From Planctomycetota bacterium (lineage in GTDB: Bacteria > Planctomycetota > B15-G4 > JADJEK01), in the NCBI GenBank assembly GCA_044225365.1, contig JBGAIQ010000034.1:1-57799 (forward strand): a DNA stretch of 57,799 bases, in the 5' to 3' direction. Of this stretch, positions 6,447 to 29,984 are shown piece after piece (the first letter of the stretch is position 1; each line of letters opens with the position of its first letter). A program made the position numbers and the translations under genes. Below the pieces are notes generated by a model. That model had not been told where the DNA came from, ran no database searches, and saw only the letters and a list, made by a program, of their open reading frames with translations.

Positions 6447-9400
6447 TTGGGACAACGCGCCGTGGCATTTGGACCCGAATCCTGGAAAGAGATCACGCCC
6501 TCGCGGTTTCCCTGGGAGCGCGAGGCGCTCGCGTTCCTCCGTGAACACCTCCCGAGCCACGAGCCCTACCGCGCCTTCACCAACTTCGAGTTCCTCGCCC
6601 GCGACGGCTCGATCAACGAGGTCGACGCACTGATCGTCACGCCGCGAGGCTGCTTCCTCGTCGAGATCAAGAGCTGGCACGGTGAGATCCGTGGCGACTT
6701 CGCCGAATGGATCCGGATCCACGACGGTCAGCGGCGCACCGAAGAGAACCCGCTGCGCCTCGCGAACAAGAAGGCGAAGCGCCTGAAGGAACTGTTCGAG
6801 CACAATTGGCCGCGCGGGGACAAGTCGACGTCCCGTATCCCCTTCATCGCGCCGTTGGTGTTCCTCTCGGCCGAAGGAATCAACAACCGCCTCGAGATGG
6901 CGAGCGCCGGCGACGTCGTGACGCGCAAGGACGTGATCGAACACCTCGTTCACATCCCGGAAGCACAAGCGAATGACCCGCGTTTCCATCGCATCGACAA
7001 ACCGCTCGCCCGACACATCACGCAGGCTCTCGAGAAGATCGGCGTTCGAACTCGCAAACAACGGATCGGCGACTACGAGCTCGGCGCGCTTCTTCACGAC
7101 GGCGACGTATGGCAGGAATGGGAGGCGAAGCCCGCGTCGATCGATGGCGTGCGCAAGCGCCTACGGATCTACAAAGTCGCCGACGTGGCGTCGCCCGAGA
7201 TGCGAGCGACGATTCGGCGCGGCGCAGAGCGCGAGTACGTGGCCCTGCAGACCGCAAACCATCCGGGGCTGCTCCGGGCCGAGCATTTCACGCAATCCGA
7301 GATCGGGCCGGCTGTCGTCTTCGAGCACGATCCGAGCGACGAGCGACTCGACCGTTACGTGTGCTCGCGCGGCGAGAAGATCACATTCTCGCAGCGCCTC
7401 GACTTCCTGCGACAGATCGCCGAGGCCGTAGCCTACGCGCATGGGCAGAAGCTGGTGCATCGCGCTCTCGCCCCATCGAGCGTGCTCATTCGGAAACCCG
7501 ATTCCCCGAAGCGTCACGCGATCGTCTTCAACTGGCAGACGAGCGCGCGGGCGGCGGATAGCGGCACGCACAGCACCACGCGGGGGAGGCTCACCGCAAC
7601 GTCTCATGTGTCGGCATTGCTCGAGGACGGGGCCGCCGCGTATCTCGCCCCGGAGATCCTGACGACGCCGGATACCGACGACCCGCGACTCGATGTGTTC
7701 TCGCTCGGCGCGATCGGCTTCTTCCTCTTCACCGGAACGCCGCCAGCGAGCTCGCTGCTCGAGCTGACCGAGAAAGTGAAGGAAGGCGAGGGGCTCCGCC
7801 TCGAATCCGTGCTCGACGGCGCACCCAAGCCGATCGCCGAGCTCTTGCGCGAAGCGACACACCCGGAAGTGGGCCGACGCATCGAAAGTGCGAAGGAGTT
7901 CCTCGCCTTTCTCGAGGACGCCGAAGAGAAGCTCACACGACCGGATGAACCGGGCGACGGTGGTCCTTCCGCGCTCGACCCGCCAAATGCGAAAGTTGGC
8001 GAGCGACTCGGGGACGAGTACACGGTCAAGTCTCGTCTCGGCTCGGGATCCTCGGCCGTCGCCTATCTCGTCACCCGCGGCGATGACGCGAGTGGCGGAT
8101 CCGAAGTGGTCCTCAAAGTCGCGCTCGATCCCTCCTACAACGAGCGGTTGCGCGGCGAAGGCGAGATCCTCGCGAAACTACGCCATCCGGGCGTCGTTCG
8201 TTATCACGAGACGATCGAGATCGCCGGCCACGCGGCACTGGTACTCGATCGCGCAGGCAAAGAAACTCTGGGCGACCGACTGCGTCGCGACGGGTCCCTT
8301 CAGACCGACCTGCTCGAACGCTTCGGCCGCGATCTTCTCGAAGTGTTGGAGTACCTCGAAGGCGAGGGGATCCTCCATCGCGACATCAAGCCGGAGAATC
8401 TGGGTATCACCGAGCGCGGCAAGAACGACGAGCTGCATCTCGTGTTGCTCGACTTCTCGCTCTCGCGCGCGCCCGCCGACGCGATCTTTGCCGGAACGCG
8501 TTACTACTTGGACCCGTTCCTCCAAACGAGGAAGGCGAAGCGCTTCGACGCGCACGCGGAGCGGTTCGCCGCGGCGATGACCCTGCATGAAATGGCGACA
8601 GGAGTGCTGCCGAAGTGGGGTGATGGCGTCAGCAATCCTTCGGCTCTCGACTGCGAAGCGACGATCGAGGGCGATCGATTTCCAGCAGGGCCGCGCAAAC
8701 GCCTCGCCGAGTTCTTCGTCCGCGCGCTTGCGCGTCGCACGGAAGACCGCTTCGGCAACACGGAGGAGATGCTCACGGCTTGGCGAAAGGCGTTCGCGGT
8801 CAAGGCGAAGAACGACGTCGAGACCAAGCTGGACGAGGCGGAGCAGCGGCAGGCATTGGCGACCGCGACGCTCACGACGACGATCGGTGAGCTCCTGCTC
8901 TCGACGCGCGCCGAGAATGCTCTCGATCGCGCCGGAGTGACGAACGTCCGCGGGTTCGTCGATCTGCCGGAGGGCGAGCTGTGGCGAATGCGCGGAGTTG
9001 GCACGAAGACACGGGATGAACTCACCGCGCTGAAGCGCGAGCTGGGCAAGCGTTTCGGTCCCACGGGTACCGCGCCCGTCGCGAACGCAAAGAAGAGTTC
9101 GAAAGCCTCCGGCGACCACAACGAATCGATCTCCGACAGCTCGGCGTCGGACGCGGACCTCACGATCGATGCGCTGGTCCGCTTGCTCGTGCCGAAGAGG
9201 GGAAACGCCAAGGCGACCTTGAGCTGGCTCCTCGGTTTGGAGCCTCTTCCCGCGCCGATCGTGCCGAAAGCTCCGCTCTGGCCCTCGCTCGTCGAAGTCG
9301 CTCGCGTCGCCGATCTCACACCTGCCGGAGTCGGGGCCACGCTCAACAAGCAGCGCCTCGCCTGGGAAAAGATGCCGGCGATGAAGGCACTCCAGGACGA

Positions 9401-10796
9401 TGTGGTCATGCTGCTCGATCAACTCGGTGAAGTTGCGTTGATCGACGAATTGATCGACAAGCTCGTTCCGTTGCGTGGCTTCTACGAGCGTGATCCGAGC
9501 GTCCGCCGCCGCTACGGCGCGGCGGTGTTGCGGGGAGCGATCGAGACCGAGCGCAAATCGGAGACTCCTCGCCTGACGATCGAACGTCATGCGGAGCGGG
9601 TCTTCGTCGCACGGGAGGGAGAGGGTCGGGACGGCTCGCGTACGATCTCGGCAGTTCGTCAGCTCGGACTCGTCGCCGACGAGATCGCCGCCGATGCCAA
9701 GGACGGTCTGGTTCTCGCGCCAGAGGCCGCGCTCGAAAAGCTGCGCCTTTCCTATCCGGCGCGCAATTTGACAGGGCTTTCACTCCCGCGCCTTGCGCGG
9801 CTTGCTGTTTCGGTTTCATCGAACGCGGCGCTGTCGAGCCGACTCGAGATCTACCCGCGGGGTCTCGCCGTGGACCGCGCTCTTCGCCTCGCGCATGGTG
9901 CGTTTGCGGGCGTCAAAGAGCTCGAAGTCGCCGAGATCCACTCCCGACTCCACGCGCGATACCCCGAATGCGCGCCGCTGCCTCCGCGTCCCGAGCTCGA
10001 CGCCCTGCTCGATCGCGTCGGCTTTCGGTTCGAATTCGATCTGAAGGCGGCGAACGGCAAGGGTGCGTATCGCTCGAAGGACATCGCGCACGGGACGATC
10101 AGCTCGGACACGACGCGCTCGTCGCGTCACGCGACCGTGCACGGCGAGGCCGGCCGAGCGCCGCGTCCTTCCCAATCGGTCGAGGAATCGGAATCGATCG
10201 CGGAAGCGCGTGCGTTCGAAGAGCGCCTCGTGCGCGCGGATCGCGACGGAGCTTTTCTCGTCCTCGCGGCGAGTCCGAGCGATGCGCTTGATGCCGAGCG
10301 AGAGCTGCGACACCGCTTCAAAAGGCTCGTGACGTACTCCTTCGAGTCTCTCCTGATCGACGCGCTCGACGCGAAGGCTCGAGCTCTCGGCGCCGACTGG
10401 AGCGTGGTGCTCGCGGCCGATGCGGCGCCGGCCGACTCCGACGATGGCCGGCGGTTACGCCAGCTCGTGACTTCGGTCCTGCCGGAGATCGAAGCGAGGC
10501 TCTCGACCTGCGAGACGACGATTCTGCTCACGAACCTCGGTCTCCTTGCACGCTACGACCGCATCCATCTGATCGATCGCCTGCGCGATCGCGTCACCGT
10601 ACGGCCGAGCGCGAGCGATCCCGGTCTCTTCGGTCTCTGGCTCCTCGTGCCGTGCGATGGCCTGGCCGAGGCGCCGCGGATCGACGCTCGCGCGGTGCCC
10701 GTCCTCACACCCGCACAGTGGGCGCGAGTTCCACGGGCTTGGATCAAGAACGTCCACCGCGGAAGTACCAACGTCGTCGCGGTTCCTTCCCCCTGA
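6447..10796 (+). CDS. pglW: BREX type 2 Ser/Thr kinase PglW (NERD domain, pseudokinase, kinase, alpha-CTD-like HTH)
   Basis: N-terminal SRFPWEREAL and EVDALIVTPRGCFLVEIKSW (NERD); degenerate HRALAP kinase; second kinase LGSGSSA/HRDIKPEN/LLDFSLS; LSTRAENALDR..MRGVGTKT. Exact start uncertain (TTG 6447 or GTG 6462). Confidence 0.93.
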   Translation: MGQRAVAFGPESWKEITPSRFPWEREALAFLREHLPSHEPYRAFTNFEFLARDGSINEVDALIVTPRGCFLVEIKSWHGEIRGDFAEWIRIHDGQRRTEENPLRLANKKAKRLKELFEHNWPRGDKSTSRIPFIAPLVFLSAEGINNRLEMASAGDVVTRKDVIEHLVHIPEAQANDPRFHRIDKPLARHITQALEKIGVRTRKQRIGDYELGALLHDGDVWQEWEAKPASIDGVRKRLRIYKVADVASPEMRATIRRGAEREYVALQTANHPGLLRAEHFTQSEIGPAVVFEHDPSDERLDRYVCSRGEKITFSQRLDFLRQIAEAVAYAHGQKLVHRALAPSSVLIRKPDSPKRHAIVFNWQTSARAADSGTHSTTRGRLTATSHVSALLEDGAAAYLAPEILTTPDTDDPRLDVFSLGAIGFFLFTGTPPASSLLELTEKVKEGEGLRLESVLDGAPKPIAELLREATHPEVGRRIESAKEFLAFLEDAEEKLTRPDEPGDGGPSALDPPNAKVGERLGDEYTVKSRLGSGSSAVAYLVTRGDDASGGSEVVLKVALDPSYNERLRGEGEILAKLRHPGVVRYHETIEIAGHAALVLDRAGKETLGDRLRRDGSLQTDLLERFGRDLLEVLEYLEGEGILHRDIKPENLGITERGKNDELHLVLLDFSLSRAPADAIFAGTRYYLDPFLQTRKAKRFDAHAERFAAAMTLHEMATGVLPKWGDGVSNPSALDCEATIEGDRFPAGPRKRLAEFFVRALARRTEDRFGNTEEMLTAWRKAFAVKAKNDVETKLDEAEQRQALATATLTTTIGELLLSTRAENALDRAGVTNVRGFVDLPEGELWRMRGVGTKTRDELTALKRELGKRFGPTGTAPVANAKKSSKASGDHNESISDSSASDADLTIDALVRLLVPKRGNAKATLSWLLGLEPLPAPIVPKAPLWPSLVEVARVADLTPAGVGATLNKQRLAWEKMPAMKALQDDVVMLLDQLGEVALIDELIDKLVPLRGFYERDPSVRRRYGAAVLRGAIETERKSETPRLTIERHAERVFVAREGEGRDGSRTISAVRQLGLVADEIAADAKDGLVLAPEAALEKLRLSYPARNLTGLSLPRLARLAVSVSSNAALSSRLEIYPRGLAVDRALRLAHGAFAGVKELEVAEIHSRLHARYPECAPLPPRPELDALLDRVGFRFEFDLKAANGKGAYRSKDIAHGTISSDTTRSSRHATVHGEAGRAPRPSQSVEESESIAEARAFEERLVRADRDGAFLVLAASPSDALDAERELRHRFKRLVTYSFESLLIDALDAKARALGADWSVVLAADAAPADSDDGRRLRQLVTSVLPEIEARLSTCETTILLTNLGLLARYDRIHLIDRLRDRVTVRPSASDPGLFGLWLLVPCDGLAEAPRIDARAVPVLTPAQWARVPRAWIKNVHRGSTNVVAVPSP

Positions 10797-10827: not shown

Positions 10828-13800
10828 ATGATCGACCGCAAGGCGTTGCTCGCCGATCTCGAGAAGTTGCTGGAGAAACTCGAGGATGATTTCCGCGCTC
10901 ACCTCGAGGCGGCACCGGAGGCCAACGAAAGAGTCGCGGCGGACTACCTCGCGGCGAAGGCCGCGGGCCGCACCGCGCAAACCGAGAACACCTTTCGCGA
11001 CGAACAGGTCACGCAAGCTGCAGTCGCCTGGATCCTCGCCGCCGTCTTCGTGCGCTTCCTCGAGGACAACGACCTCGTGACGGAATCGCCGGGCGATCCG
11101 TGGCCGCGCATTTCCGGGCCCAACGCGCCGAGCGATCGCTTGCGCCGCGCGAAGGACTCCCAGACGCTGTTCTTCCAGCAGCACCCGAAGGAGAGCGATC
11201 GCGAGTTCCTGCTCGACATTTACAAAGCCGTCGCGCGACTACCCGGAATGTCCGCGCTCATTGACGAGACGACGAACCCGCTGTTTCGCTACGTGCCGAG
11301 CGCCGACGGCGCGACCCTCCTCCTCGAGTTCTTCCGCAAGGTCGATCCCAGCTCGGGGGCGATCGTCCACGACTTCACGGACCCGGAGCTGCGCACTCGC
11401 TTTCTTGGCGACCTCTACCAAGACCTCTCGGCCGTTGCGCGCGACAAGTACGCGTTGCTCCAGACTCCCGACTTCGTTCAGGACTTCCTGCTCGATCGCA
11501 CGCTCGAACCGGCGATCCGTGAATTCGGCCTCGCCGAAGCGACGCTGATCGACCCTACTTGCGGCTCCGGTCACTTCCTGCTCGGGGCGTTCGAGCGGCT
11601 CGTCGAGCAATGGCGTCGCGCGGAGCCAGGCACGAACGTTCGCGAGCTCGTGCGCCGCGCTCTCTCGCAGGTCTCTGGCGTCGACATCAATCCGTTCGCG
11701 ATCGCGATTGCGCGCTTTCGCTTGCTCGTCGCGGCGATTCAGGCATGCGGGATCCGTCGACTCGTCGATGCGCCGGACTTCAAGTTCGATCTCGCGGTCG
11801 GCGACTCGCTGCTTTTCGGAAGGCGTCCACGGCACGGAAGTGGAGTGCAGCGAGATCTCTTCGACGATAAGTTCACGCATCACTACGCGAGCGAGGATCC
11901 GGAAGCCGTACGGCGAATCCTGGAGCGAACCTACTCGGTCGTGGTCGGCAATCCTCCCTACATCATCGCGCGCGATGCCGCGCTGAATGCGGCGTATCGC
12001 GCGCGGTTCGAGAGCTGTCACCGCAAATTCTCGCTTGTCGTTCCGTTCGTTGAGCGGTTCTTCGATCTCGCTCATCACGCCAACTCTGCGAATGAACGAG
12101 CAGGCTATGTCGCGATGATCGCTGCGAATGCGTTCATGAAGCGCGAGTTCGGCAAGAAGCTCGTCGAGTCTTACTTACCCAACTACGACATGACATGTGT
12201 CGTTGACACTTCAGGCGCGTACATTCCCGGCCACGGCACGCCGACCGTCCTGCTCCTGGCGCGCGACCGTTGGCCCGTGGCGAAACACGTTCGGGCAGTG
12301 CTTGGCATCCGCGGTGAGCCGGGTACACCCGAGGATCCCGCGCGCGGACGTGTCTGGTCAGAAATTGTCGAACACATCGAGCAACCAGGATTCGAGGGTT
12401 CGTTCGTCTCGGTCGCGGACATCGCTCGCGAACGATCGAATTCGCATCCGTGGTCGATGGGTGGAGGCGGTGCCGCGGACCTGCGAGAGCAGTTGGACGA
12501 AGACGCGTCGGCCGTGCTCTCGCAATCGGCTGACTCGATTGGCTTCGGAGCGATCCTCGGCGAGGACGACGCGTTCGAGCGGCCGATTGGCTCGCCATCG
12601 TTGCGGCGTCTCCCGGCAGCCAATCGACGCCCGCTGATCGTTGGTGATCATGTTCGGGATTGGTGCGCCGAGTACTCGTCCGAAGTGTTGTTTGCGTATG
12701 ACCAACGAATCGAACTCGTCGATGACCCCGCCATTCGAGCGTGGCTCTGGACGAATCGCACAATCCTTGAAGGCCGCGCAGATTTCTCCAATAGGTCGTA
12801 CCGTGAGGCCGGCCGCCCGTACTGGGAATATCACCAGATCCCAGTCGAACGGAACCGCACGCCGCTCTCGATCACGTTTGGCGAAGTCGCCACTCACAAC
12901 CACTTCGTCCTCGACCGCGGCGGCAAGGTCTTCAAGCAGACCGCGCCCGTCATCAAGCTGCCGGCCGGAGCGAGCGAGGAGGAGCATCTCGGCCTGCTCG
13001 GGATCCTCAACAGCTCGACGGCGTGTTTCTGGTTTCAGCAGGTCTGCCACAACAAGGGCGGTCCTGGTGGCGCGAACTCCAAGGACGAGAAGTGGCACGA
13101 CTTCTACCAGCTCAACGGAACGAAGCTGGAAGTGCTGCCGCTCCCGGTGAGTCGGCCTTACTCGCGCACGGCACGACTCGACGAACTCAGCGCGCGGCGA
13201 GCGAAGTCTGCCCCCGGTTCGATTCGCACGACCGAACTTCCTTCCGCCGCTCGACTTCAAGAAGCGCGGCAAACGTACGACGAGCTGTTCTCGCGGATGA
13301 TCTCCGAGCAAGACGAGCTCGACTGGGAGTGCTACCGGCTCTACGGCCTCGTCGACGAAGACCTTTTCCTGCCACCCGGTGCAGCTCCGCCGCTCCGACT
13401 CGGAGAGCGAGCCTTCGAGATCGTCCTCGCGTGCAGGCTCGCCGCGGGCCAGATCGAGACCAAATGGTTCGAGCGCCATGGCTCGACGCCGATCACCGAA
13501 ATTCCCGCGCACTGGCCAGACGCGTACAAGAAGCTCGTCGCTCGTCGCATCGAAGTGATCGCGAGCAACGCCAACATCCGCCTCATCGAGCAACCCGAGT
13601 ACAAGCGCCGCTGGAACCAGGAATCGTGGGAAGATCAGGAACAGCGCGCGCTGCGCTCCTGGCTCCTCGATCGTCTCGAGGATCCCAAGCTCTGGCCGCG
13701 CGGCCCGAGTGCGAGGAGTGCGACGGGCGGCGAACCTCTGCTTCGGTCGACCTCCGAGCTCGCAGATCTCGTCCGCGCCGACCGCGACTTCCATCAGGTC

Positions 13801-14475
13801 GCCGAGCTCTACGCGGGCCGTCCCGACTTCGACCTCTCCGCCGTCGTTCGTGAGCTGGTCGAATCCGAGGCCGTGCCGTACCTACCCGTGCTGCGCTACA
13901 AGGACTCGGGGCTGCGAAAACGCGTCGATTGGGAGAAGACCTGGGAGTTCCAGCGCAAGGAAGACGCGATCGACGTCCTAGGTCTCTCCGCCGCCGACGC
14001 GAAGGCGAAGAAGAAGTCCGAGATCGGCGACATCGCCGTGCCGCCGAAGTATGGATCGGGGGACTTCCTGAAGGCGACCTACTGGCGCTTGCGCGGCAAG
14101 CTCGACGTCCCGAAGGAGCGCTTCGTCGCGTATCCGTTCGCGTCGAAGGACACCGACCCGTCGCTCGTGATCACGTGGGCCGGCTACGACCATCTCGAGC
14201 AGGGCAAGGCGCTCGCCGCGTGGTACGTCGCCCGCAAGGAATCCGACGGTTGGCCGAAGGAACGTCTACAGCCACTTCTCCTCGGTTTGCTCGATCTCTT
14301 GCCCTGGATCCACCAGTGGCATCCCGAGGTCGACCTGCAGCTCGGCGAGACGATGGGCAAGTACTTCAGCGGGTTCATCGACGAGGAAGCGCGGAGCCTC
14401 GGGTTGACGTTGGAGGAGTTGCGGAAGTGGACGCCGCCGGAAAAGGCGCGTGGCCGGGGGCGCAAGAAGTCATGA
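10828..14475 (+). CDS. pglX: BREX type 2 N6-adenine DNA methyltransferase PglX
   Basis: TRFLGDLYQDLS..YALLQTPDFV, motif I DPTCGSGHFL, motif IV VVGNPPY, AYIPGHGTPT, YWRLRGKLDVPKERF; follows pglW. Confidence 0.95.
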   Translation: MIDRKALLADLEKLLEKLEDDFRAHLEAAPEANERVAADYLAAKAAGRTAQTENTFRDEQVTQAAVAWILAAVFVRFLEDNDLVTESPGDPWPRISGPNAPSDRLRRAKDSQTLFFQQHPKESDREFLLDIYKAVARLPGMSALIDETTNPLFRYVPSADGATLLLEFFRKVDPSSGAIVHDFTDPELRTRFLGDLYQDLSAVARDKYALLQTPDFVQDFLLDRTLEPAIREFGLAEATLIDPTCGSGHFLLGAFERLVEQWRRAEPGTNVRELVRRALSQVSGVDINPFAIAIARFRLLVAAIQACGIRRLVDAPDFKFDLAVGDSLLFGRRPRHGSGVQRDLFDDKFTHHYASEDPEAVRRILERTYSVVVGNPPYIIARDAALNAAYRARFESCHRKFSLVVPFVERFFDLAHHANSANERAGYVAMIAANAFMKREFGKKLVESYLPNYDMTCVVDTSGAYIPGHGTPTVLLLARDRWPVAKHVRAVLGIRGEPGTPEDPARGRVWSEIVEHIEQPGFEGSFVSVADIARERSNSHPWSMGGGGAADLREQLDEDASAVLSQSADSIGFGAILGEDDAFERPIGSPSLRRLPAANRRPLIVGDHVRDWCAEYSSEVLFAYDQRIELVDDPAIRAWLWTNRTILEGRADFSNRSYREAGRPYWEYHQIPVERNRTPLSITFGEVATHNHFVLDRGGKVFKQTAPVIKLPAGASEEEHLGLLGILNSSTACFWFQQVCHNKGGPGGANSKDEKWHDFYQLNGTKLEVLPLPVSRPYSRTARLDELSARRAKSAPGSIRTTELPSAARLQEARQTYDELFSRMISEQDELDWECYRLYGLVDEDLFLPPGAAPPLRLGERAFEIVLACRLAAGQIETKWFERHGSTPITEIPAHWPDAYKKLVARRIEVIASNANIRLIEQPEYKRRWNQESWEDQEQRALRSWLLDRLEDPKLWPRGPSARSATGGEPLLRSTSELADLVRADRDFHQVAELYAGRPDFDLSAVVRELVESEAVPYLPVLRYKDSGLRKRVDWEKTWEFQRKEDAIDVLGLSAADAKAKKKSEIGDIAVPPKYGSGDFLKATYWRLRGKLDVPKERFVAYPFASKDTDPSLVITWAGYDHLEQGKALAAWYVARKESDGWPKERLQPLLLGLLDLLPWIHQWHPEVDLQLGETMGKYFSGFIDEEARSLGLTLEELRKWTPPEKARGRGRKKS

Positions 14476-15314
14476 GCATTGGCGAGTCATCGAACATCGC
14501 CCCCGCAGTCCGGGCGATAGTCGACAATCTCGGCGAAGAGCGCCGTCCCGGCGCAGTGCTCATCTGCGACGCGCTTGGCTTCAAGGGGCTCTGGAAGGGA
14601 CATTATGTGGAGCTCCTCGAAAGCCTAAAGCACGTTCAAGGGGAAGCAGATCGAGTCCTGAAGGGCTTTGCCGATGAGATGGACTGGACCGCGAAGTCTC
14701 AGTTCTTCACGTTCTCAGACACGCTCGCGGGCACTGTTCGCGTGGAAGCCAAGGAATCGGTCACTGACGTGCCACCCGCTACGTTGCATTGGGTTGCCGT
14801 CGAGTACGCAGCGGCCGTCGCGAGCATGATCCAGCATGCTGCTCTGAAGTCGAAGATTCGGCTGAGTTATCGCGGCAGCATCGCGTTCGGTGAATTCATG
14901 TCCGACGACGCGGAACGGATTTTGATCGGTGAGGCGATCGATGAAGCTGCGGCGCATCACGAGCAAGCAGAGGGCGCCTTCGTTCGACTCACGCCGAGCG
15001 CGAGAACGATCGTCGACGCGTACTGTGCACTTGACGGAGTTGGCGGAGCAACCACGACCGTTGGCGAGCCCAAGCTCGCGTTCCTGGTTCGACGAGAAGT
15101 GCCAGTGAAGCAGCTCGGCATGATGGACTCTTGGGTTGTGAACCCGCTCGTCCCGGGAGCCAACTGGGAACTCGACGCTCGCGAATTCACTTCGAGGATG
15201 CGCGCCACCTTCGATCGCGCGGGCGCCGATCCGAAAGTGGAGAAGATGTGGCAGAACACGCGGCGCTTCCTCGAGAGTCTAGATCGTGATGATTCCGTAC
15301 ATCACGACAAGTGA
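14472..15314 (+). CDS. Putative class III nucleotide-cyclase-fold protein (280 aa)
   Basis: ATGA overlap with the pglX stop. Motifs ICDALGFK, FSDT, YRGSIAFGEF and LIGEAIDEAAAHHEQA occur in the order seen in adenylate/guanylate cyclase catalytic domains. Confidence 0.6.
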   Translation: MSIGESSNIAPAVRAIVDNLGEERRPGAVLICDALGFKGLWKGHYVELLESLKHVQGEADRVLKGFADEMDWTAKSQFFTFSDTLAGTVRVEAKESVTDVPPATLHWVAVEYAAAVASMIQHAALKSKIRLSYRGSIAFGEFMSDDAERILIGEAIDEAAAHHEQAEGAFVRLTPSARTIVDAYCALDGVGGATTTVGEPKLAFLVRREVPVKQLGMMDSWVVNPLVPGANWELDAREFTSRMRATFDRAGADPKVEKMWQNTRRFLESLDRDDSVHHDK

Positions 15315-16186
15315 TCGACATCGAGCCTGTCGGAGAGCACGTACTCCGCTGCCGTCATCGCCGGAAGTGATTGCACGATGGCTTCGGCGCGAAACTTTTG
15401 GCTGCCGCCTGAAGCCGGAGCGGTTTCGAGAAGGCGTTGCCAATCTTCGAGCCACTCGTGCCAGGGCCGACCACCGACGACCTCGGGCGCTCCGATCTCG
15501 CGAACGAAGTACACCGTTACGGTCACGTTCGGCGCGTTCCAATCCGGATTCGGTCTTACACGGATCTCGCGCAGATTCGCGATCGCGGCCGCTTCGGGGG
15601 TTTCGCCCGCCACGTTCTCTTTGATCCACGAGCCGAGCGGACCAATGAGCGACACGAACTCGTTCGGAAATGCTGGGCGCCCGTGCTTTCGCATCAGAGC
15701 GAGTTGGAAGCTCCGGACCTCTTCGTCCGTTCGGCATCCTCGAATGCGCTGCGCTGTCCAAAGTGCGAGTACCGGCCGCTCGATCACCATGGTTCGGTCG
15801 AGATCGGCTACCAGCCCGCGATCCTCGAGCGCGGGAACGAACGCGAATCGGTTTTCCTGGCCCTTCTTGATCCAAGCAACGCGTCCTTTGCTCGGCTCCG
15901 CGTAGAGCGCGGCAACCTCGACGAAGGGACGGAGATGGACCTTCTTGCTCGCGAGGTCGCATGTCTGCGTGATCACTGCGAGCCCCGGGACCGTAACTGC
16001 TGCGATGGCCGGGTCGTCGTCAGCGCCCTCCTTCGCCGCGATGACCGCGGCAGGGCTCACCGGCTGTTTCGGATCGAACCGAAAAGTGAGCTCTTGATCC
16101 CCGACGACGCAATCGCCTTGACGCCACGTCTTCAGCGCGGCGTCGACTTCGTTCATCCACGGTTCGCGAACGGCGGTCTCAGGCAC
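15302..16186 (-). CDS. Hypothetical protein with WRQGD...VITQTCD motif (possible PemK/MazF-like toxin fold)
   Basis: 294-aa ORF, GTG start overlapping the upstream stop by 8 bp; WRQGD, ITQTCDL, VADLDR and RKHGRPAFP motifs. Fold is inferred. Confidence 0.55.
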   Translation of the reverse strand: MPETAVREPWMNEVDAALKTWRQGDCVVGDQELTFRFDPKQPVSPAAVIAAKEGADDDPAIAAVTVPGLAVITQTCDLASKKVHLRPFVEVAALYAEPSKGRVAWIKKGQENRFAFVPALEDRGLVADLDRTMVIERPVLALWTAQRIRGCRTDEEVRSFQLALMRKHGRPAFPNEFVSLIGPLGSWIKENVAGETPEAAAIANLREIRVRPNPDWNAPNVTVTVYFVREIGAPEVVGGRPWHEWLEDWQRLLETAPASGGSQKFRAEAIVQSLPAMTAAEYVLSDRLDVDHLS

Positions 16187-16850
16187 GCCCCTTCTTCCTC
16201 TTCAACTGGCTCTTCAACTGGATGCGTCGACCGCGCTCCACTTTGTCGTCGATGGGTTCGTCGCGACCACCGAGCAGATTCTCGGGGCGCGGGGGTCTGT
16301 GAGCGTCGATCAGGGACTTCGAGAACGACGAAGGCGAGATGGCGGGGCGCACGCCATGACCGCGGCCGATGAGTCGCCTTGCGGATTCGTGGTCGCCGTC
16401 GCGCAGGAGTTCGAGCGCACACCTGCCGTCGGCGCCTCTCGAATCGAGGAGTCGTCGGGTCGCTTCTGTATCGCCGCGATCGATGTAGCGAATCGTTGCC
16501 AAGACCGACGCGAGTTGCGCGGCTCGCTCGGTTTCCGGTGCGCGTCCGCTCACCCAGAAGTGCACGGAGCGTCGGTCCACACCAAGCAGGCGACCGATCT
16601 CGTCGTAGGTGAGGCCGGCGCGTATCCGAAGTTCCGCAATGATCTCGGGCACCCGCGGCGCGCGCGCTCGAACGCGCAGGTCTGCGAAGTCCGCTGCCGT
16701 GACGTTCTCCGCGTGATGCGGGAGCCAATCGACGGGTGACGTCATCGGTGAAGCAAACGTGAGGAAGCTGATCAGCGTCCCGCCGATCCGTTCTGTGAAT
16801 GCACTGCCCGCGGTGGTGGAACTCGTGCTCGTAGTGAAGCCACTTTTCAT
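16179..16850 (-). CDS. XRE-type HTH protein with Ser/Thr-rich N-terminal extension
   Basis: ELRIRAGLTYDEIGRLLGVDRRSVHFWVSG HTH; ATG 16850 forms an ATGA overlap with the upstream stop. Confidence 0.75.
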   Translation of the reverse strand: MKSGFTTSTSSTTAGSAFTERIGGTLISFLTFASPMTSPVDWLPHHAENVTAADFADLRVRARAPRVPEIIAELRIRAGLTYDEIGRLLGVDRRSVHFWVSGRAPETERAAQLASVLATIRYIDRGDTEATRRLLDSRGADGRCALELLRDGDHESARRLIGRGHGVRPAISPSSFSKSLIDAHRPPRPENLLGGRDEPIDDKVERGRRIQLKSQLKRKKGRA

Positions 16851-17638
16851 GGCGTACCTCGAAATCGCTCGAGGAACTCGTCGGTCACCGCCCAACGGAA
16901 GAACGTGTAGGTCCGGCCCGCAAAGTTTCCCGTCATCTCGCGCAGTCGTTCAACGTTGAATTCCATTCGTTGATCGGTGAACGTATCGATGTCGAGGATC
17001 CAGCTCGGATGCTCGACAGGCTCGAGAGCGCCGGGATCGATCGTCGAGCCGGATGGCAGAAGCCCGAATCGAGCGTGCATTTGGATCACTTCATGCTTGA
17101 ACCAAGTATCGGTCACGATGGCATTCACGCGCTCGTTGGCGAAGGAAGGCCACGTGCCGCCTACCTCGGGCCGCACCAACTTCAGGATCGAGTCGCGATC
17201 CGTGGCATCGACCCGATCGATGTAGCGGATTCCCAAGCGCGTCGCGACGCGGGGGTCGACGACAGAGTGCGTTGCCGACAGCACCACTTCCCAGCGCCGC
17301 AGGAACTCGGATCTGCTCGTGTAGGCCTTCGACTCGAGGGCGACGAAGTTCGGTGTGAGCGACAAGCGCCAGGATTCGCTGAGGTCGACGAAACGCCAAG
17401 CCTCGGTGGGTCCGACGCTGATGTTCCCAGCTTGATCGACCGCAAGCGTCGACGAACTCTCCGCGGTCAGGATCGGATACGCATCGCGGACGAGTTCCTG
17501 GAACCGTGCAACCTGCCCTGACGAGCCGAGGTTCAGCAGCGGTGGAAATCGAACCTGCGCCAATACGCGCACCAGAGGTGCGTGAGCGAGAGGCACTTCT
17601 TCGGGCTCGGGTGCTGTCAGTGGATCGAAGGTTGTCAC
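16847..17638 (-). CDS. TIGR04255-family protein
   Basis: PLAHAPLVRVLAQVRFP, AYTSRSEFL, RLGIRYIDRV, WILDIDTF and FFRWAVTDEFLERF match family hallmarks as I recall them. Confidence 0.85.
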   Translation of the reverse strand: MTTFDPLTAPEPEEVPLAHAPLVRVLAQVRFPPLLNLGSSGQVARFQELVRDAYPILTAESSSTLAVDQAGNISVGPTEAWRFVDLSESWRLSLTPNFVALESKAYTSRSEFLRRWEVVLSATHSVVDPRVATRLGIRYIDRVDATDRDSILKLVRPEVGGTWPSFANERVNAIVTDTWFKHEVIQMHARFGLLPSGSTIDPGALEPVEHPSWILDIDTFTDQRMEFNVERLREMTGNFAGRTYTFFRWAVTDEFLERFRGTP

Positions 17639-17687: not shown

Positions 17688-18030
17688 ATGTATTACTTGA
17701 TTCAAATCATGGCTTTACTGACGCTGCTCGCGGACGCAAGCATCGGGGAATGAATCCACGCCTGGCTCGAGAGCGAGCATTGTGCGGACCCGACACGCCG
17801 CGCGACGGAGAGATTGCCCGTCAACGAGACGCCGAAAACTCTTGCTGGTCGGGAGACCCCTCTCGCGCGTCTCCGCCTTGTCTCTTGTGCTGCTTCGGCT
17901 TAGTCTCGTCACGGGCTCCGCGGAATCGCGTTCGAAGGGAACGGAAGGCGGTGCTTTCGACGAAGCTGGGTTGCCGAGGCGCATTTCGGCGCGTAAAAGA
18001 GTTGCTTTAGAAGTGAACTCGTCGGGGCCG

Positions 18031-18486
18031 ATGACGAAGAAGTGGCGGGAGCTTGGTCATCTCGACGCTCGTGGTCCCCAAGGATGGACCGTCGAGTTCG
18101 CGACGATGCTCGACGGCTCGCGCCCCGCGTTGGACTACATCGATGGAACGGATAAAGCGTCGAACCCGAAGCGACTGTTCCGCGAGAACGACTTCTCGCG
18201 GCTCACCTCGATTCTCGAGCAGATTCGCTTCGGCGGGACTCAGGACTTGCTGGGTTCACCCGTCTTCACGAGTTTCATCGGAGAAGACAAGAAGGACGCG
18301 ATGTGCGAACTTCGGATCAAAGCGGAGCAAGGCCATCGCTTCCTTTGCTTCAAGCGAGATGGGCAGCGTTTCGTGATCGCGTGCGGCTTCTTGAAGCCGC
18401 CGCAGTACGAGACTCCGAAAGAGCAGAAGGTTCGCGCGCGGTCGATCATGGCCGAATACGAGAGCCCGAAGAAACCGAAACGGTGA
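18031..18486 (+). CDS. HigB/RelE-family (Gp49-like) toxin of a TAC module
   Basis: MCELRIK..GHRFLCF..GQRFVIACGFLK..QYETPKEQKVRA; toxin-first order ahead of an HTH gene. Confidence 0.75.
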   Translation: MTKKWRELGHLDARGPQGWTVEFATMLDGSRPALDYIDGTDKASNPKRLFRENDFSRLTSILEQIRFGGTQDLLGSPVFTSFIGEDKKDAMCELRIKAEQGHRFLCFKRDGQRFVIACGFLKPPQYETPKEQKVRARSIMAEYESPKKPKR

Positions 18487-18489
18487 GAA

Positions 18490-18906
18490 GTGATGTACGA
18501 CCCGATCGATGAGCAGGATGTCTACCTCGAGACCCAGCGCCTTGCCGTGATGGCGAGCGTCGGAATCGAGAACGCGATGACCAAGGCCGGCCTCCGTCGG
18601 TCCGATCTCGCCACGAGGCTCGACGTTCCGCGCTCGCGGATCAGTCAGGCGCTCGACGGCGAGACCAACATGACGCTGAAGACGCTCGCGCAGTTCGGAC
18701 TCGCTTGCGGTGTCCGGTGGCAATTCGTGGGAGTCGATGCCGTCGACGCCGCGAAGATCGTCGTGGCACCGCCGTCGCTCGGACTCATTTCCGAATGTGA
18801 GTTCGTCGTCGAACCTGTTGGCGAATTCAGCATGGACTCGGCCGCGCCGAAGATCTCCGCGGTGAGTTCGCCGGCGGACTCCAACAACTACGAACTCGCC
18901 GCATGA
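18490..18906 (+). CDS. HigA-like XRE HTH antitoxin with C-terminal extension ending in an SsrA-like tag
   Basis: GLRRSDLATRLDVPRSRISQALDGETNMTLKTL HTH; about 60-aa tail ending ADSNNYELAA. Confidence 0.8.
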   Translation: MMYDPIDEQDVYLETQRLAVMASVGIENAMTKAGLRRSDLATRLDVPRSRISQALDGETNMTLKTLAQFGLACGVRWQFVGVDAVDAAKIVVAPPSLGLISECEFVVEPVGEFSMDSAAPKISAVSSPADSNNYELAA

Positions 18907-19576: not shown

Positions 19577-19663
19577 GTAGGAATCCGCCAACGACATCGG
19601 TCGCAAGGCGCTTTTCCAACGTGGTTTGTGTCTTGGAGACGTGCGTGATTGCGCTCGGCAGGC

Positions 19664-19687
19664 AGGCCAGGTATATATACCAGGCCT
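19664..19687. promoter_or_regulatory. 24-bp near-perfect palindrome with the same GGTATATATACC core, putative AbiEi operator 2
   Basis: AGGCCAGGTATA|TATACCAGGCCT (one mismatch), ending 1 nt before the ATG at 19689. Confidence 0.75.
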
Positions 19688-19688
19688 C

Positions 19689-20570
19689 ATGACCATCTCA
19701 AAAGCCGCTCTCACCCGCCTTCTCGCCGGCTTCCAGGGCCTTGGAGACGCCGCGTTCTCGTTCCACGACATCAGCACGCTCTTGAATCAGAATCGTTCGA
19801 ACTGGGGAGTCCCGGGAGATCTCGGAGCCAAACGAACTCTAGCCTTCTTGATGGAGAAGAATCAGATCCGCGAGGTCGCTTTGCCGTCGGTCGGGAAAAA
19901 GAAGAAGTACCCGGCGATCACGCGATACGTTCAAGGCCAGCCCTCGGCATTCGACCTGGCCGTTTCGATTGCTTCGTCCGCTTACCTTTGTCACGCGTCC
20001 GCACTCTACGTCCATGGTCTCACGAACCAGATTCCAGCGACGATCTACGTCAACCGTGAGCAAAGCCCGAAGCCTGATCCGGATGGTGACCTCACGCAGG
20101 CCGCCATCGATCGCGCGTTCAACAGTCCGCAGCGACGAACGAATTACGTCTTCGCGTACGAGGGATTCCAGATCGCGATCCTGTCCGGGAAGAACACGAA
20201 ACGACTCGAGGTGATCGAGATCCCGAACGGCGAATTCCAAGGCCTGCCGGTGACGAGCATCGAGCGCACGCTCATCGACATTGCCGTTCGACCGGATTAC
20301 TCCGGAGGTGTCGCACAAGTGGCCGAGGCGTACGACCGAGCGAAGGGCCGCTTCTCAGTCAATCGGCTCGTGGCGACGTTGAAGAAGCTGGCGTACGTGT
20401 ACCCGTACCACCAGGTGATTGGCTTCTACCTTTCGCGGAGCAACTATCCCGAGAAGAGCCTCGTCGAACTGAGGAAGCTCGGGACCGAATTCAATTTCCA
20501 CCTGGCACACGGACTGAAGACCCGCGTCCTCGACCCCTCATGGCGGGTCTATCGTCCAGAGTGGCTCTAG
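19689..20570 (+). CDS. Type IV TA antitoxin, AbiEi-like
   Basis: AYLCHASALYVHGLTNQIPATIYVN and VTSIERTLIDIAVRPDYSGGVAQV are AbiEi C-terminal domain motifs; wHTH-like N-terminus. Confidence 0.8.
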   Translation: MTISKAALTRLLAGFQGLGDAAFSFHDISTLLNQNRSNWGVPGDLGAKRTLAFLMEKNQIREVALPSVGKKKKYPAITRYVQGQPSAFDLAVSIASSAYLCHASALYVHGLTNQIPATIYVNREQSPKPDPDGDLTQAAIDRAFNSPQRRTNYVFAYEGFQIAILSGKNTKRLEVIEIPNGEFQGLPVTSIERTLIDIAVRPDYSGGVAQVAEAYDRAKGRFSVNRLVATLKKLAYVYPYHQVIGFYLSRSNYPEKSLVELRKLGTEFNFHLAHGLKTRVLDPSWRVYRPEWL

Positions 20571-21470
20571 TCCCGCTGCGTGCTCGACGACGAAGTCGAA
20601 GTACACGTCGTAGGAGAGCAAGGCACCAGAAACGGAGCCCTCGACCTCCGGCCATCCAGCACGATGGAACTCTCGGCCATTCGAGATCCGAGCGAGGAGC
20701 GTCAGCGGGACTTCCTTCACTTCAAAACTTGCCCGGACCAACTCGTGAATGTCCGGATCCCGAAAGTCCACCTCGCCGGCGGACACGATCGCATGAATGT
20801 CGTAGAAATCGCGAGCTCGCGGCGCCTTGTTGCGACGCTTCGAGTACTCCGGCATCTGCTGGCAAAGCGCGCGGAGCTTTTCGACGGCGATCAACTCCGG
20901 CGCGCACACGCGCACCAGCAACCCATCCACGTCGCATTCGTTCATCGTGCCGCAGAACTCGTTCTTGCTGATCTCGATCTCCATCATGCGTCCCTGACCG
21001 GGACTCACCACCTCCGCTTCTGCAGACAGCCGATCGGGTCGCTTTGCGTGGCGTTCGCGGAGATCGCGGGTCGCCAACTTGAACGTCACGATGTAGCCCC
21101 CGGCTCTCGCCACTCCGACGTGTTTCGGTTTGTGCGCGAACTTGTAGTCGACGACATGGAGCTTCAGCCGGAGGAACTCCTGTTCAAGCGCAATCCGAAG
21201 TTGCTCGCGTGCGGCTCCCGCATCCGCGAAATCGGACTCGAGCGAGTAGTCGACGTCCTGGGATGTCCTGGCGCCAAGATCGTGTACGAGCCGCAGGGCG
21301 TTCCCGCCCTTGAGGACGAGCACCTTCGACAGTTCGTCGTCGGCGGCGATCGCGCGAATGACCGCGCGGCGATACTCGACCAGTCGCGGGTCGGTCTGGA
21401 TCCGGCGGCCATCCGATGAGGAATCGAATTGGAGCGAACTTCGGGCAGTGACTCGACGCTTCTTCGCCAT
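20538..21470 (-). CDS. Type IV TA toxin, AbiEii/AbiGii-family nucleotidyltransferase
   Basis: LVLKGGNALRL..RTSQDVDYS (Pol-beta motif), IAVEKLRAL and RARDFYDI. Confidence 0.88.
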   Translation of the reverse strand: MAKKRRVTARSSLQFDSSSDGRRIQTDPRLVEYRRAVIRAIAADDELSKVLVLKGGNALRLVHDLGARTSQDVDYSLESDFADAGAAREQLRIALEQEFLRLKLHVVDYKFAHKPKHVGVARAGGYIVTFKLATRDLRERHAKRPDRLSAEAEVVSPGQGRMMEIEISKNEFCGTMNECDVDGLLVRVCAPELIAVEKLRALCQQMPEYSKRRNKAPRARDFYDIHAIVSAGEVDFRDPDIHELVRASFEVKEVPLTLLARISNGREFHRAGWPEVEGSVSGALLSYDVYFDFVVEHAAGLEPLWTIDPP

Positions 21471-21577
21471 GGCACGAAGTCGTACCACGAACTCGGTCAG
21501 CGTTCGAGACCGCTCGCCACGCGGATCTCGCTCGTCCGGACTGGGTCGCCTTCGTCCGGCGCGGTAGTGCGCGAGGC

Positions 21578-21611: not shown

Positions 21612-21856
21612 ATCAGCTCTCGTGCTGATGCTCGTTGCCAGCGGCTCGAAGCACCGGAGGGGACTTCGGGCGGTACACGCGACGCTCCTGTCGGTGCATT
21701 GCGGGTGAACGAAGCTGTCGACGCTTCCGCTGCGAGATAAGATTGCGCCGAACTGGAGATGGCCCGAACGAACTGGCGCGACGCTTCGACCTGAACGGGA
21801 TTGACCCCGGCGATGGAGTATGGGAAAACCGCGACCTCCGACAAGGGAACGAATCG

Positions 21857-24800
21857 ATGACCGAAACGCTGCTCCGTGACCTGATCGCGATCCCCGAGCG
21901 AGTGCACAAGGGCGACTTCGTCCTGAAGCTCACCGAGGGTGTCGCGCACGGCGACGAGACCGTGCGCGAGTACGTCGTCACGGAACCGCTCGCCAAGAAT
22001 TTCGACCAGGCGCTTGGGCTCATTCGCTCGGCGGTCGAGAACCGGACGAGCAAAGCGGCTTACCTGCACGGCAGCTTTGGCAGCGGCAAGAGTCACTTCA
22101 TGGCGATGCTGCATCTTTTGTTGCAGCACGATGCAGGAGCGCGCGCGGTTCCCGAACTCGCCGGAGTGGTATCGACCCACTCGGGCTGGCTGCAGGGCAA
22201 GCGGTTTCTCCTCGTGCCCTACCACATGATCGGGGCGCGAAGTTTCGAGCAGGCGCTGGTCGACGGCTACTTGCGCACGATCGAAGTGAAGCACCCTGAT
22301 GCACAGTCTCCGGCAGTGTTCCGCGCCGAAGCACTGTTCAAGGACGCCGCGGGACTCCGCTCGACGCTCGGTGACGCTGCGTTCTTCGCAAAGTTGAATG
22401 CGCGTGCCGCAGCGTCGAGTGCGTCGAAAGCAGGCGGTTGGGGCGCGCTGGATCAGGGTTGGGATGTCGCCACCTACGCCGCGGCGGTTTCGGCCGGTCC
22501 TCATGCCGACGAACGCCGGCGGCTCACACGTGACCTGGTTTCACAGTTCTTCCCCTCGTACGCGAAGGCGAGTGGCGACGACTCCTACCTCGACATGGAC
22601 GACGTCTTGCTCGAGCTGTCGCGCCATGCGAAGTCTCTCGGCTACGACGCGCTCATACTCTTCCTCGACGAGTTGATTCTCTGGCTCGCGAGTCACGTCG
22701 CCGACAGCGCGTTCATCGGACGCGAGGCGCAGAAGGTCGCGAAGTTCGTCGAGTCCGGCACGACGATGCGGGCCTGCGCAGTGATCTCGTTCATCGCGCG
22801 ACAGCGCGATCTGCGCGAACTGATCGGCGAGCATGTTCCAGGAGCGGAGAAACTCGGCTTCACGGACGTTTTGGACTATGCGCGTGGCCGGTTCGACACG
22901 ATCAAGCTCGAGGATCGAAACCTCGCGGCGATCGTCGAGAAGCGCTTGCTGAAGCCGAAAGATGCAGCCGCACGGGAAGCGATCGATCGCGCGTTCGAGC
23001 GAGTCGAGAAGGTCCGTGACACGGTGCTCACGGCGTTGCTTACCCGTGACGGTGATCGAGCGACATTCCGTCGGGTGTACCCGTTCAGTCCGGCGCTCGT
23101 ACAGGTCCTTGTCGCCGTCTCTTCTGCGTTGCAGCGCGAGCGAACGGCGCTCCGCGTCATGCTTCAGTTGCTCGTCGATCAACGCGATCGGCTCGAACTC
23201 GGTCAACTCGTGGCTGTCGGCGACCTCTTCGACGTGATCGCCGAAGGCGACGAGCCCTTCACCGACCAGCTTCGCTCCCAATTCGAGAACACGAAGAAGC
23301 TGTGGCGCACGAAGCTGCTGCCGATGCTCGAGGATTTGCATGGCATTCGGTACGAGGCGGCCAGGATCGCTCCCGCTGACGACGCGAAGGCACGCGCCTT
23401 CCGCGGGGACGAGAGGTTGCTGAAGACGCTTCTCCTCGCGGCGCTCGTTCCCGAGGAAGAGTCGCTCAAGAATCTCACCGCGGGCCGCCTGCACGCTCTG
23501 AATCACGGCACGATCGTGACGCCCGTCGCAGGGCGCGAGACGCAAGCCGTACTCGCCAAGATGCGCGAGTTCGCATCGCGCGTCGGCGAGATCAAGATCG
23601 GCGAGGGATCCGATCCGACGCTGGCAGTTCAAGTCACCGGGGTCGATATCGAGCCGATCCTGGAGCGTGCGGCGTCCGAAGACACCAAAGCGGATCGGCT
23701 GCGGAGAATTCGCGACACGATCTACAAGCGAGTCGGGGTATCGCCTGGGGAGTTATTCAATGCCTCGTTCCCCTGGGAATGGCGAGGAACAGCTCGAACG
23801 GTCGATGTCGTCTTCGGAAACGTGCGGGAGCTTTCGACGGACGCATTTCGCGTCGACGGCGATCGATGGAAGATCGTCATCGACTATCCCTTCGACGAGA
23901 TGGGTCACTCCGCACAGGACGACATCTCGCGCATCGATGACCTGCGCGGTCACGAAGTTCGCGACCGCACCGTCTGCTGGATTCCGAGCTTCTTCTCGAA
24001 CGAGATGCTTACGGATCTCGGTCGGCTGGTGAGGGCGGAACGAATCCTCACGGGAGAACGATTCCGGACCTTCACCGAAGCGCTGTCGGACGTGGATCGG
24101 CAAGCTGCAAAGCTCTTGCTCGAAAACCTGCGCTCCCAGCTCGACAACAAGCTGCTGGTCGCGATCGAGGCTGCGTACGGCTTGCGTGAACCACCGCCGC
24201 GGTTGCTCGACGAACCACTCGATCCGACTCTCCATCTGCACGTCCTGTGTCCTGGTGTCTCGCTGCGACCGCCGGTAGGCGCGGACCTCAAATCCGCGTT
24301 CCTCCAGCTCCTCGATCAGTTGATGTCGTGGCAGTACTCAGCGCATCCCGAGTTCAAGCGGCTGGTCAAGACGAGCGAGTTAAAGAAGATCCTCGAAGTT
24401 GCGCACGCCACGAACGCCGACCCTCAACATCGCAGCACGCCAGAGGCGTCGTTTCGGCCGATCCTGCGCGATATCGCGGGACCCTTGGGTCTGGGCGAGC
24501 AACACGAAGCGGCGTTCCTGTTGAGTGACCAATGGAGAACGAAGCTCTTGAAGAAGGCCGCCGCCGATGAGGGAAGCCTTACCGTTAGAAAGCTGCGTGA
24601 GTTCATCGATGACCCGAAACCCATGGGTCTGCCGCGCGAGGTGCAAAACCTACTCATTCTCGTGTTTGCCGAGCAGACCGGGAAAGCGTTGGTCGGACTT
24701 CGGGCCGACGGGGCGTCGATCGAGCAGATCGATGACGACTTGGAACTCCGCGATCAGAAGCTCCCATCACAATCCGCGTGGAAAGCGGCGCGAGACCGCG

Positions 24801-29977: not shown

Positions 29978-29984
29978 GGGAGTG

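Follow-up and report, generated by a model that had tools for sequence, protein, structure and literature searches.

Bacteriophage exclusion (BREX) loci often contain genes embedded among their core components, more than half of them with no known role according to a recent preprint (bioRxiv 10.1101/2024.01.29.577857), and a BREX census reports Schlafen and OLD/TOPRIM proteins as backup effectors inside such loci (PMC12839542). Here we analyze a gene of this kind found in a Planctomycetota bacterium, on contig JBGAIQ010000034.1, whose whole stretch of 57,799 nucleotides (nt) is called the window throughout. The gene directly follows pglX in a complete type 2 BREX (phage growth limitation, Pgl) locus and encodes a 280-residue protein (P0001, the target) with the fold of class III nucleotide cyclases. 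We give an even chance to the reading that the target represents a new and divergent family of cyclase fold, was captured as cargo or as an accessory gene into a variable slot between pglX and pglY, and is neither a BREX core component nor a signal generator controlled by PglZ.

Class III cyclases (PF00211, Guanylate_cyc) share with the target the fold, the order of motifs, both metal-binding aspartates, the Arg of the RxGxxxG motif and probably the Lys of the KG motif. However, the target falls below the Pfam threshold, exhibits Asp in place of the transition-state Asn, belongs to a family in which the corresponding Arg and Lys positions are not conserved, lacks a regulatory domain and possesses an extra conserved pair of C-terminal helices. 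Pycsar systems, which combine the cyclase PycC with an effector activated by cyclic nucleoside monophosphates (cNMPs), likewise place a cyclase-fold protein in a defense locus, but no effector gene adjoins the target here or its homologs in 103 loci, and the target is closer in structure to signaling cyclases than to PycC. In Panoptes, a minimal Cas10-like palm enzyme, mCpol, acts with a membrane effector that is obligatory and encoded next to it; the target is likewise a small stand-alone palm-fold protein in a defense locus, but it has no partner gene and resembles class III cyclases more than GGDEF domains (Z 14.5 versus 10.1), whereas mCpol is Cas10/GGDEF-like. The guard logic of Panoptes resembles the one that an initial annotation of this DNA proposed for the present locus. 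Finally, the genes known to be embedded in BREX (BrxU, PARIS-like ATP-binding cassette (ABC) ATPases and Schlafen RNases), to which "guilt by embedding" has been applied, lie like the target between core genes and on the same strand; the target differs from them in being a putative cyclase-fold enzyme, not a nuclease or ATPase, and in coming from a family not otherwise found in BREX (103 loci). No description of a cyclase-fold gene coupled to pglX in BREX was found in the literature, and the word "cyclase" is absent from the main texts of both PMC12839542 and bioRxiv 10.1101/2024.01.29.577857.

The junction between pglX and the target comprises the following features:

10828..14475, plus strand: pglX, encoding the BREX-2 adenine methyltransferase of 1215 amino acids (aa); DUF7008 (2.3e-158) and Eco57I matches; PADLOC PglX, 1598 bits
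14427..14429, plus strand: alternative in-frame GTG start, 15 codons upstream, with which the protein on record (P0002, 295 aa) begins
14472..15314, plus strand: the target gene (P0001), encoding a 280-aa solitary protein of divergent class III cyclase-homology fold; key residues D33 and D83 (predicted metal Asp), R134, D157 (Asn position) and K213

The ATG of the target at 14472 overlaps the TGA of pglX at 14473-14475 in the sequence ATGA (...aagaagtcATGAgc...), and the target ends with the stop codon at 15312-15314 (280 aa). The initial annotation had pointed to this overlap and to a set of protein motifs, all of which are indeed present (CDALGFK at residues 32-38, FSDT at 81-84, RGSIAFG at 134-140 and GEAIDEA at 153-159). 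The GTG start is preceded at about 10 nt by GGAGGAG and would give a 49-nt overlap with pglX; the two genes thus overlap with either start. Met-Ser at the ATG is common to the target and to its closest homolog, P0003, while the 15 preceding residues are dissimilar in the two proteins, which favors ATG 14472 over GTG 14427 as the likely start. No sigma-70-like promoter was found between pglX and the target. The GC contents of the first, second and third codon positions (GC1/GC2/GC3) are 0.65/0.44/0.69 in the target and 0.67/0.45/0.78 in pglX, and because of this similarity the target can be said to code like its neighbors. A spurious open reading frame (ORF) is ruled out by the homologs (663 representative proteins), by codon-position GC and by the confidence of the structural model, and the target is confirmed as a real gene.

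The structure of the target was predicted with AlphaFold2 from an alignment of 103 sequences (103 of 150 listed matches plus matches of a word-indexed search, with full-length ones preferred), with a predicted local distance difference test (pLDDT) of 88.5 and a predicted template modeling score (pTM) of 0.86. With Foldseek this model has 161 matches at E<=0.001, and those at the top are without exception class III cyclases (the first being 5oyh_M, E 5.7e-8). Among 48,161 chains compared with VIA-align, the top matches are 3et6_B (Z 14.5, root-mean-square deviation (rmsd) 3.9, 175 residues aligned), 3uvj_A (14.5) and 1cs4_A (14.1), and the top cyclases superimpose with rmsd 3.2-3.9 over 171-175 residues. 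Lower in the same comparison stand 6yii, an ATP-binding protein named in its title as class III adenylyl cyclase-like (Z 12.2), the Pycsar cyclases 8jsf (11.4), 7r65 (11.3) and 8jsz (10.8), and the best GGDEF domain (10.1). The similarity is also detectable between profiles: the family profile matches the cyclase 3mr7 with E 0.0053, and hhalign aligns the family with 15 canonical cyclase domains drawn from related genomes over 143 columns (probability 92.3%, E 5.6e-7). Alignment with one single cyclase is not significant (E 0.1) and pairs D33 with the metal Asp.

The target matches no Pfam family at E<=0.01, PF00211 included, no NCBIfam model and no PADLOC v2 model at E<=0.01, candidate families (PDC) included; a search of the whole genome with PF00211 retrieves one other gene, and 4 of the 103 relatives give weak PF00211 matches, the best with E 0.032. 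A phmmer search of the PDB with the target yields only chance matches, PHROGs only matches at E>0.01, and a fold search of BFVD only generic cyclase or GGDEF-domain viral proteins. The ESM Atlas places the target closest to unnamed clusters; the first cluster with a name is a cyclase-domain one at 0.91, which is a lead only. Predictions of a homodimer from two copies reached 0.39, 0.26 and 0.39, against a mark of 0.42 and controls at 0.00. Taken on the structural and profile comparisons, the assignment of the target to the class III cyclase homology domain (palm) fold is sound.

The alignment by hhalign pairs D33 and D83 with the metal-binding aspartates, R134 with the Arg of RxGxxxG, D157 with the transition-state Asn and A161 with the transition-state Arg. 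The six positions compare as follows:

D33: metal Asp 1 (beta1); D in 102 of 103 relatives
D83: metal Asp 2 (beta2-beta3 hairpin); D in 103 of 103
R134: beta4 Arg of RxGxxxG; R in 103 of 103
D157: transition-state Asn position; D in 98 of 103, N in 3
A161: transition-state Arg position; E36, A21, S19, Q8, D4, with no preference for Arg
F79: substrate-specifying Lys position, before the hairpin Asp; T20, R19, A16, S13

In the 15 canonical cyclases the D, K, D, N and R of these positions are invariant. Thus the two aspartates noted initially as candidate metal ligands hold throughout the family; of the class III layout claimed with them, the fold is borne out by the predicted structure compared with PycC and adenylate cyclases (Z 14.5 to signaling cyclases and about 11 to Pycsar cyclases), but the Asn, Arg and Lys residues are not there. 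E158 is E or D in 88 of 103 relatives, and K213, part of a VPxK motif, is K in 92 of 103; K213 may correspond to the Lys of the KG motif, in a stretch that lies outside the hhalign alignment. The C-terminal helical pair (residues ~236-277) carries a conserved K..QNT motif. The metal and triphosphate half of the cyclase site is thus strictly retained, and the half responsible for ribose, base and transition state has been replaced by the conserved acidic pair D157/E158. The median terminal branch of the family tree is 1.02 changes per site, and conservation of a metal site across sequences so divergent points to an active enzyme. On the other hand, the target has neither the Asn/Arg pair of the transition state nor the Lys for the substrate, and synthesis of cNMP is therefore no safe inference.

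An exhaustive HMMER search found 663 representative clusters of this family at E<=1e-3, of which 176 reach E<=1e-10; only two (the target and P0003) remain at E<=1e-30, and the word-indexed search returned six proteins. P0003 is the only close homolog, with 51% identity. Ten relatives that were looked up are unnamed or "hypothetical protein". We collected 103 homolog loci: 23 come from species genomes (Myxococcota, Binatia, Acidobacteriota and Planctomycetes metagenome-assembled genomes, MAGs), and the other 80 are the top-ranking ones among 126 metagenomic loci. Clustering of 406 ORFs around the 84 homologs that a crude ORF caller could place revealed no neighbor family shared beyond near-duplicate loci, and the Pfam matches found in 18 of 66 immediate neighbors are a mixture of mobile, restriction-like and housekeeping families. 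Tandem or nearby paralogs occur in four loci (L009, L043, L071, L094), and single MAGs may carry up to three separate family loci (L006, L014 and L015 belong to one Binatia MAG). No fused form was detected at E<=1e-5 in the 7,999 candidates of 588-2000 aa that ranked highest in shared words, which is weak evidence. Viral contigs of IMG/VR contain one family locus; plasmid and cultured-phage collections gave no family match. The family thus consists of solitary, sporadic, unannotated, divergent cyclase-fold proteins.

The position of the target was examined by comparing the pglX-pglY junction in 13 BREX-2 loci, i.e. the window and 12 others; a further PglX-like copy (G312) and a fragment divided between contigs (G343) were left out of the comparison. 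In five of the 13 (G020, G165, G093, G318 and G109) pglY follows pglX after ~30-160 nt, and in the other eight the two genes are separated by inserts of ~1.9-7.2 kb, comprising a Schlafen-HATPase protein in four, AAA_15/AAA_21 ABC ATPases in three and the cargo of the window in one. The Schlafen inserts (L158-L160 and L163, i.e. G370, G178, G196 and G343) encode a ~565-aa protein with AlbA_2 and HATPase_c_4 domains, preceded in three of the four by a ~330-aa protein without family, both co-directional with BREX-2. The ABC-ATPase inserts lie at 16314-19738 of L110 (G005), 8082-9931 of L161 (G223) and 6570-9232 of L162 (G312), where the AAA_15/AAA_21 proteins are accompanied by DUF4276, DUF3696 or family-less partners. 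Modules of these kinds correspond to the auxiliary or backup effectors of the BREX census (PMC12839542) and to the sort of embedded gene treated in bioRxiv 10.1101/2024.01.29.577857. The pglX-pglY junction is therefore a recognized variable cargo slot, and the target is the first gene in it in the window. As regards individual loci, G005 has a 474-aa ORF of no family directly after pglX, G093 (L147) has one in-frame TGA within the PglX match, and in G165 (L146) the open frame of pglX extends to 1830 aa, the longest of all, which may reflect a fusion or read-through.

The family itself shows little association with BREX. In a search by tblastn with the BREX proteins of the window, none of the 103 homolog loci, 43 of which include at least 3 kb upstream, contained PglX, PglY, PglZ or BrxD, and the only matches were generic kinases and helicases. 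Of 400 genomes sampled evenly across the phylum, seven have the family and 12 have PglX, and none has both. Among 60 relatives of the genome, a BREX-2 PglX is present in two (G005 and G020, 60% and 57% identical to that of the window) and the family in neither; a marginal family match in G001 coincides with a PF00211 cyclase. The position of a BREX-2 core component, fixed and shared by most loci, is thus not what is observed for the target, which is missing from all 12 other PglX genomes as well as from G005 and G020; what is observed is a gene lying between core genes of a complete BREX-2, at a junction that varies among related loci, as expected of embedded cargo.

According to the reading that we prefer, a divergent cyclase-fold gene would have been captured once into the pglX-pglY slot, where it would be co-transcribed with pglW-pglX and probably translationally coupled. 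The protein would bind a nucleoside triphosphate (NTP) via two divalent metals on D33 and D83, with R134 and probably K213 holding the triphosphate, and would catalyze either the transfer of a nucleotidyl group or a reaction that releases pyrophosphate, with D157 (and E158) standing in for the Asn/Arg pair; what it forms may be something other than a canonical 3',5'-cNMP. Embedded in the locus, it would serve as an accessory or as a module of its own, comparable to the Schlafen and ABC-ATPase genes found in the same slot elsewhere.

Several observations weigh against this reading. Conservation is the only basis on which catalysis by the target is predicted, and in the K..QNT motif the Lys column, which is K in 99 of 103 sequences, has Met only in the target and in P0003, suggesting that the subclade of these two proteins may have changed function. 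The surroundings of the family show no clear enrichment in defense genes (PADLOC matches at E<=1e-8 in 7 of 150 neighbors, some of them generic, such as RecQ or a kinase; the scan covered 150 of 296 non-redundant neighbors), and it is from the window locus alone that the description as an embedded defense module is taken. Finally, the overlap with pglX may extend to P0003. The recorded N-terminus of P0003 has a 15-residue extension followed by Met-Ser, as in the window, and when all codons that could encode this extension are enumerated in the +1 frame, they give W, [IT], [LPQR], [HLPQR] ... [KR][KR][KR] ..., with a possible stop at +15. The C-termini of PglX from the window (WTPPEKARGRGRKKS, followed by the stop) and from G005 (WVPPAGGKRGRLKKA, followed by the stop) both fit this pattern, and of the best 120 PglX homologs (of 7,552), 69 have W[TAV]PP followed by basic residues at the tail. 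Among the 103 family members only P0003 has a +1 frame compatible with a pglX end. The full P0003-derived pattern is fitted by none of the best 120 of the 7,552 PglX matches, and a scan of metagenomes with the alignment of P0001 and P0003 gave 289 pattern matches and no relative. Judged from these codons, P0003 probably also overlaps the 3' end of a pglX. If so, the coupling would be conserved in the subclade, which would favor a functional tie over chance cargo. In a quick tree the two proteins group together with 99% support in the Shimodaira-Hasegawa-like approximate likelihood ratio test (SH-aLRT), and the clade of P0001 and P0003 is nested among ordinary family members. The link of the family to BREX is thus rare, with one locus certain and a second by inference; the expectation that homologs lie directly after pglX finds no BREX gene beside any of the 103 loci, and one probable case in P0003.

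The same facts are the substance of the alternative that the target is a genuine BREX-2 accessory, whose subclade works with PglX or PglW, the nucleotide made or consumed tuning methylation and restriction or guarding BREX. The 4-nt overlap with pglX, a +1 frame of the P0003 extension that can be read as the 3' end of a pglX at an identical distance from the stop, a clade that implies a single capture retained down to ~50% identity, and an intact metal site would all be expected of such a protein. However, we regard it as unlikely: none of the 12 further genomes with PglX in the phylum sample has the family, both of the BREX-2 loci most similar to this one do without the target (in one of them pglX abuts pglY), the context of P0003 is read from its protein only, no receptor or effector domain was found in the locus, and the BREX census makes no use of the term "cyclase" in its main text.

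Somewhat less probable still is that the target is an inactive pseudo-cyclase, serving as a nucleotide-binding sensor or scaffold, for which the solved class III cyclase-like ATP-binding proteins offer a precedent. One of them, 6yii, is among the structural matches, and in the target three of the six catalytic positions deviate from the canonical residue; yet the metal Asp pair, the beta4 Arg and D157 are kept in 98-103 of 103 very divergent sequences, a pattern that looks like an active site and not like a degenerate one. A bolder proposal is that the P0001/P0003 subclade would be an unrecognized pglX-coupled accessory of BREX-2, a minimal enzyme that makes or consumes a nucleotide-derived signal by which the methyltransferase/kinase module is reported on or controlled, and that the family, with its ~660 clusters, would add to the cyclase superfamily an enzyme class of a new kind, with Asp for Asn/Arg and a non-canonical product; we find this combination improbable, slightly more so than an inactive protein.

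The alternatives that remain involve the rest of the locus. All six genes of the complete type 2 BREX (PglW, PglX, PglY, PglZ, BrxD and BrxHI, identified with Pfam and PADLOC) are on the plus strand; in addition to pglX, the core genes and the ORF between pglZ and brxD are:

6447..10796, plus strand: pglW, with NERD and kinase domains (PADLOC PglW, 1396 bits), opening the pglW-pglX-target run
21635..25558, plus strand: pglY (BrxC-type ATPase; PADLOC, 1399.7 bits; the match begins at residue 77 of the longest ORF), marking the end of the variable slot
25555..28218, plus strand: pglZ (Pfam/PADLOC)
28241..29977, plus strand: 578-aa ORF with a PglZ C-terminal-like domain
29916..31304, plus strand: brxD (Pfam/PADLOC)
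31301..33400, plus strand: brxHI (Pfam/PADLOC)

The last ~110 residues of the protein at 28241 resemble the C-terminal domain of PglZ (PADLOC PglZ, 2.1e-18; NCBIfam BREX_PglZ_2, 1.4e-17). G005 has a 29%-identical counterpart in the corresponding position, while G020 has none; the protein is BREX-affiliated and is no obvious effector. In the ESM Atlas it leads to PglZ_C clusters at 0.77, a lead only. In the G312 locus (L156, G312:C3:771813-777686) the position of this ORF, between pglZ and brxD, is occupied by a second, divergent PglX-like gene (37-43% identity). Just 5' of pglW, a 513-aa ORF at 4868-6409 on the plus strand shows weak N-terminal helix-turn-helix (HTH) matches and a sub-threshold TnsD-like match (E 2.6e-4), and may be a regulator or a remnant of a mobile element.

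The pglX-pglY interval of the window spans ~7.2 kb. Behind the target it contains:

15302..16186, minus strand: convergent 294-aa ORF without family match (GC1/GC2/GC3 0.70/0.47/0.72), its 3' end overlapping that of the target by 13 nt
16179..16895, minus strand: HTH protein (HTH_3, 1.1e-6)
16847..17638, minus strand: TIGR04255-family protein (3.7e-40)
17782..18906, plus strand: Gp49-like (HigB-type) ORF (Gp49, 3.8e-4, below the cut-off), then a 138-aa HTH_3 ORF at 18490-18906 (2.4e-4)
19626..20570, plus strand: AbiEi (PADLOC, 7.6e-19)
20538..21488, minus strand: AbiEii (PADLOC, 1.7e-18)

The TIGR04255, HTH and 294-aa ORFs, in this order, form a minus-strand three-gene run that converges on the target, with a promoter-like site at 17673-17645; the last of them, the 294-aa ORF, gave no match in Pfam, PADLOC or NCBIfam. 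The Gp49-like and HTH_3 ORFs are likely a type II toxin-antitoxin pair, and a 175-aa ORF without family is also present in the slot. The AbiEi and AbiEii genes converge and overlap by ~30 nt, whereas such pairs are usually co-directional. Opposite AbiEii a plus-strand ORF (20580-21419) has similar codon-position GC, but the Pfam and PADLOC matches fall in the minus frame only.

The initial annotation had combined these genes into a second-messenger arm of BREX, in which the cyclase would make a signal, PglZ would remove it, and inhibition of BREX would trigger one of the neighboring toxins or the gene at 28241. Spelled out for the genes identified here, the signal would be a cNMP hydrolyzed by PglZ, and the toxins would be AbiE or the Gp49-like protein. 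This model has in its favor only the cyclase fold and nearby toxin-antitoxin genes, and we consider it very improbable. The observation that no cNMP-binding effector is recognizable proved correct: the next gene is convergent, and PF00027 is found neither in 20 ORFs of the window (3-33400) nor in further ORFs (18490-39592), the only match of the genome being on another contig (C21). The circuit itself is unsupported. The residues for the transition state and for substrate recognition are missing, none of the 103 homolog loci has BREX genes and none of the 12 PglX genomes has the family, and nothing links PglZ to a nucleotide signal; PglZ is described as a DNA-nicking nuclease in the BREX census (PMC12839542). 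Nor do the proposed effectors fit, since AbiEi/AbiEii and the HigB-like/HTH genes are self-contained pairs that are absent from the other BREX-2 loci examined, and the protein at 28241, with its PglZ C-terminal-like domain at the end, has its counterpart in the corresponding position of the G005 locus.

A Pycsar-type system with its effector elsewhere in the genome is hardly credible either, for although Pycsar cyclases are among the structural matches (Z 10.8-11.4), signaling cyclases match better (Z 12-14.5), PADLOC, which presumably includes a PycC model, gives no match at E<=0.01, no adjacent gene is conserved in the 103 homolog loci, and the genome encodes a single cNMP-binding domain, which lies on a different contig.

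The genes embedded in BREX and similar loci have been a productive source of new defense systems. If the target were a nucleotide-making enzyme wired to pglX, it would represent a new kind of BREX accessory and the first nucleotide-signaling link in BREX. At present its value is that of a candidate for biochemical and phage-challenge work, not of a new signaling pathway. Whatever its link to BREX, a sizeable unannotated family keeps the metal site of the cyclases without their transition-state residues, which makes its chemistry directly testable.

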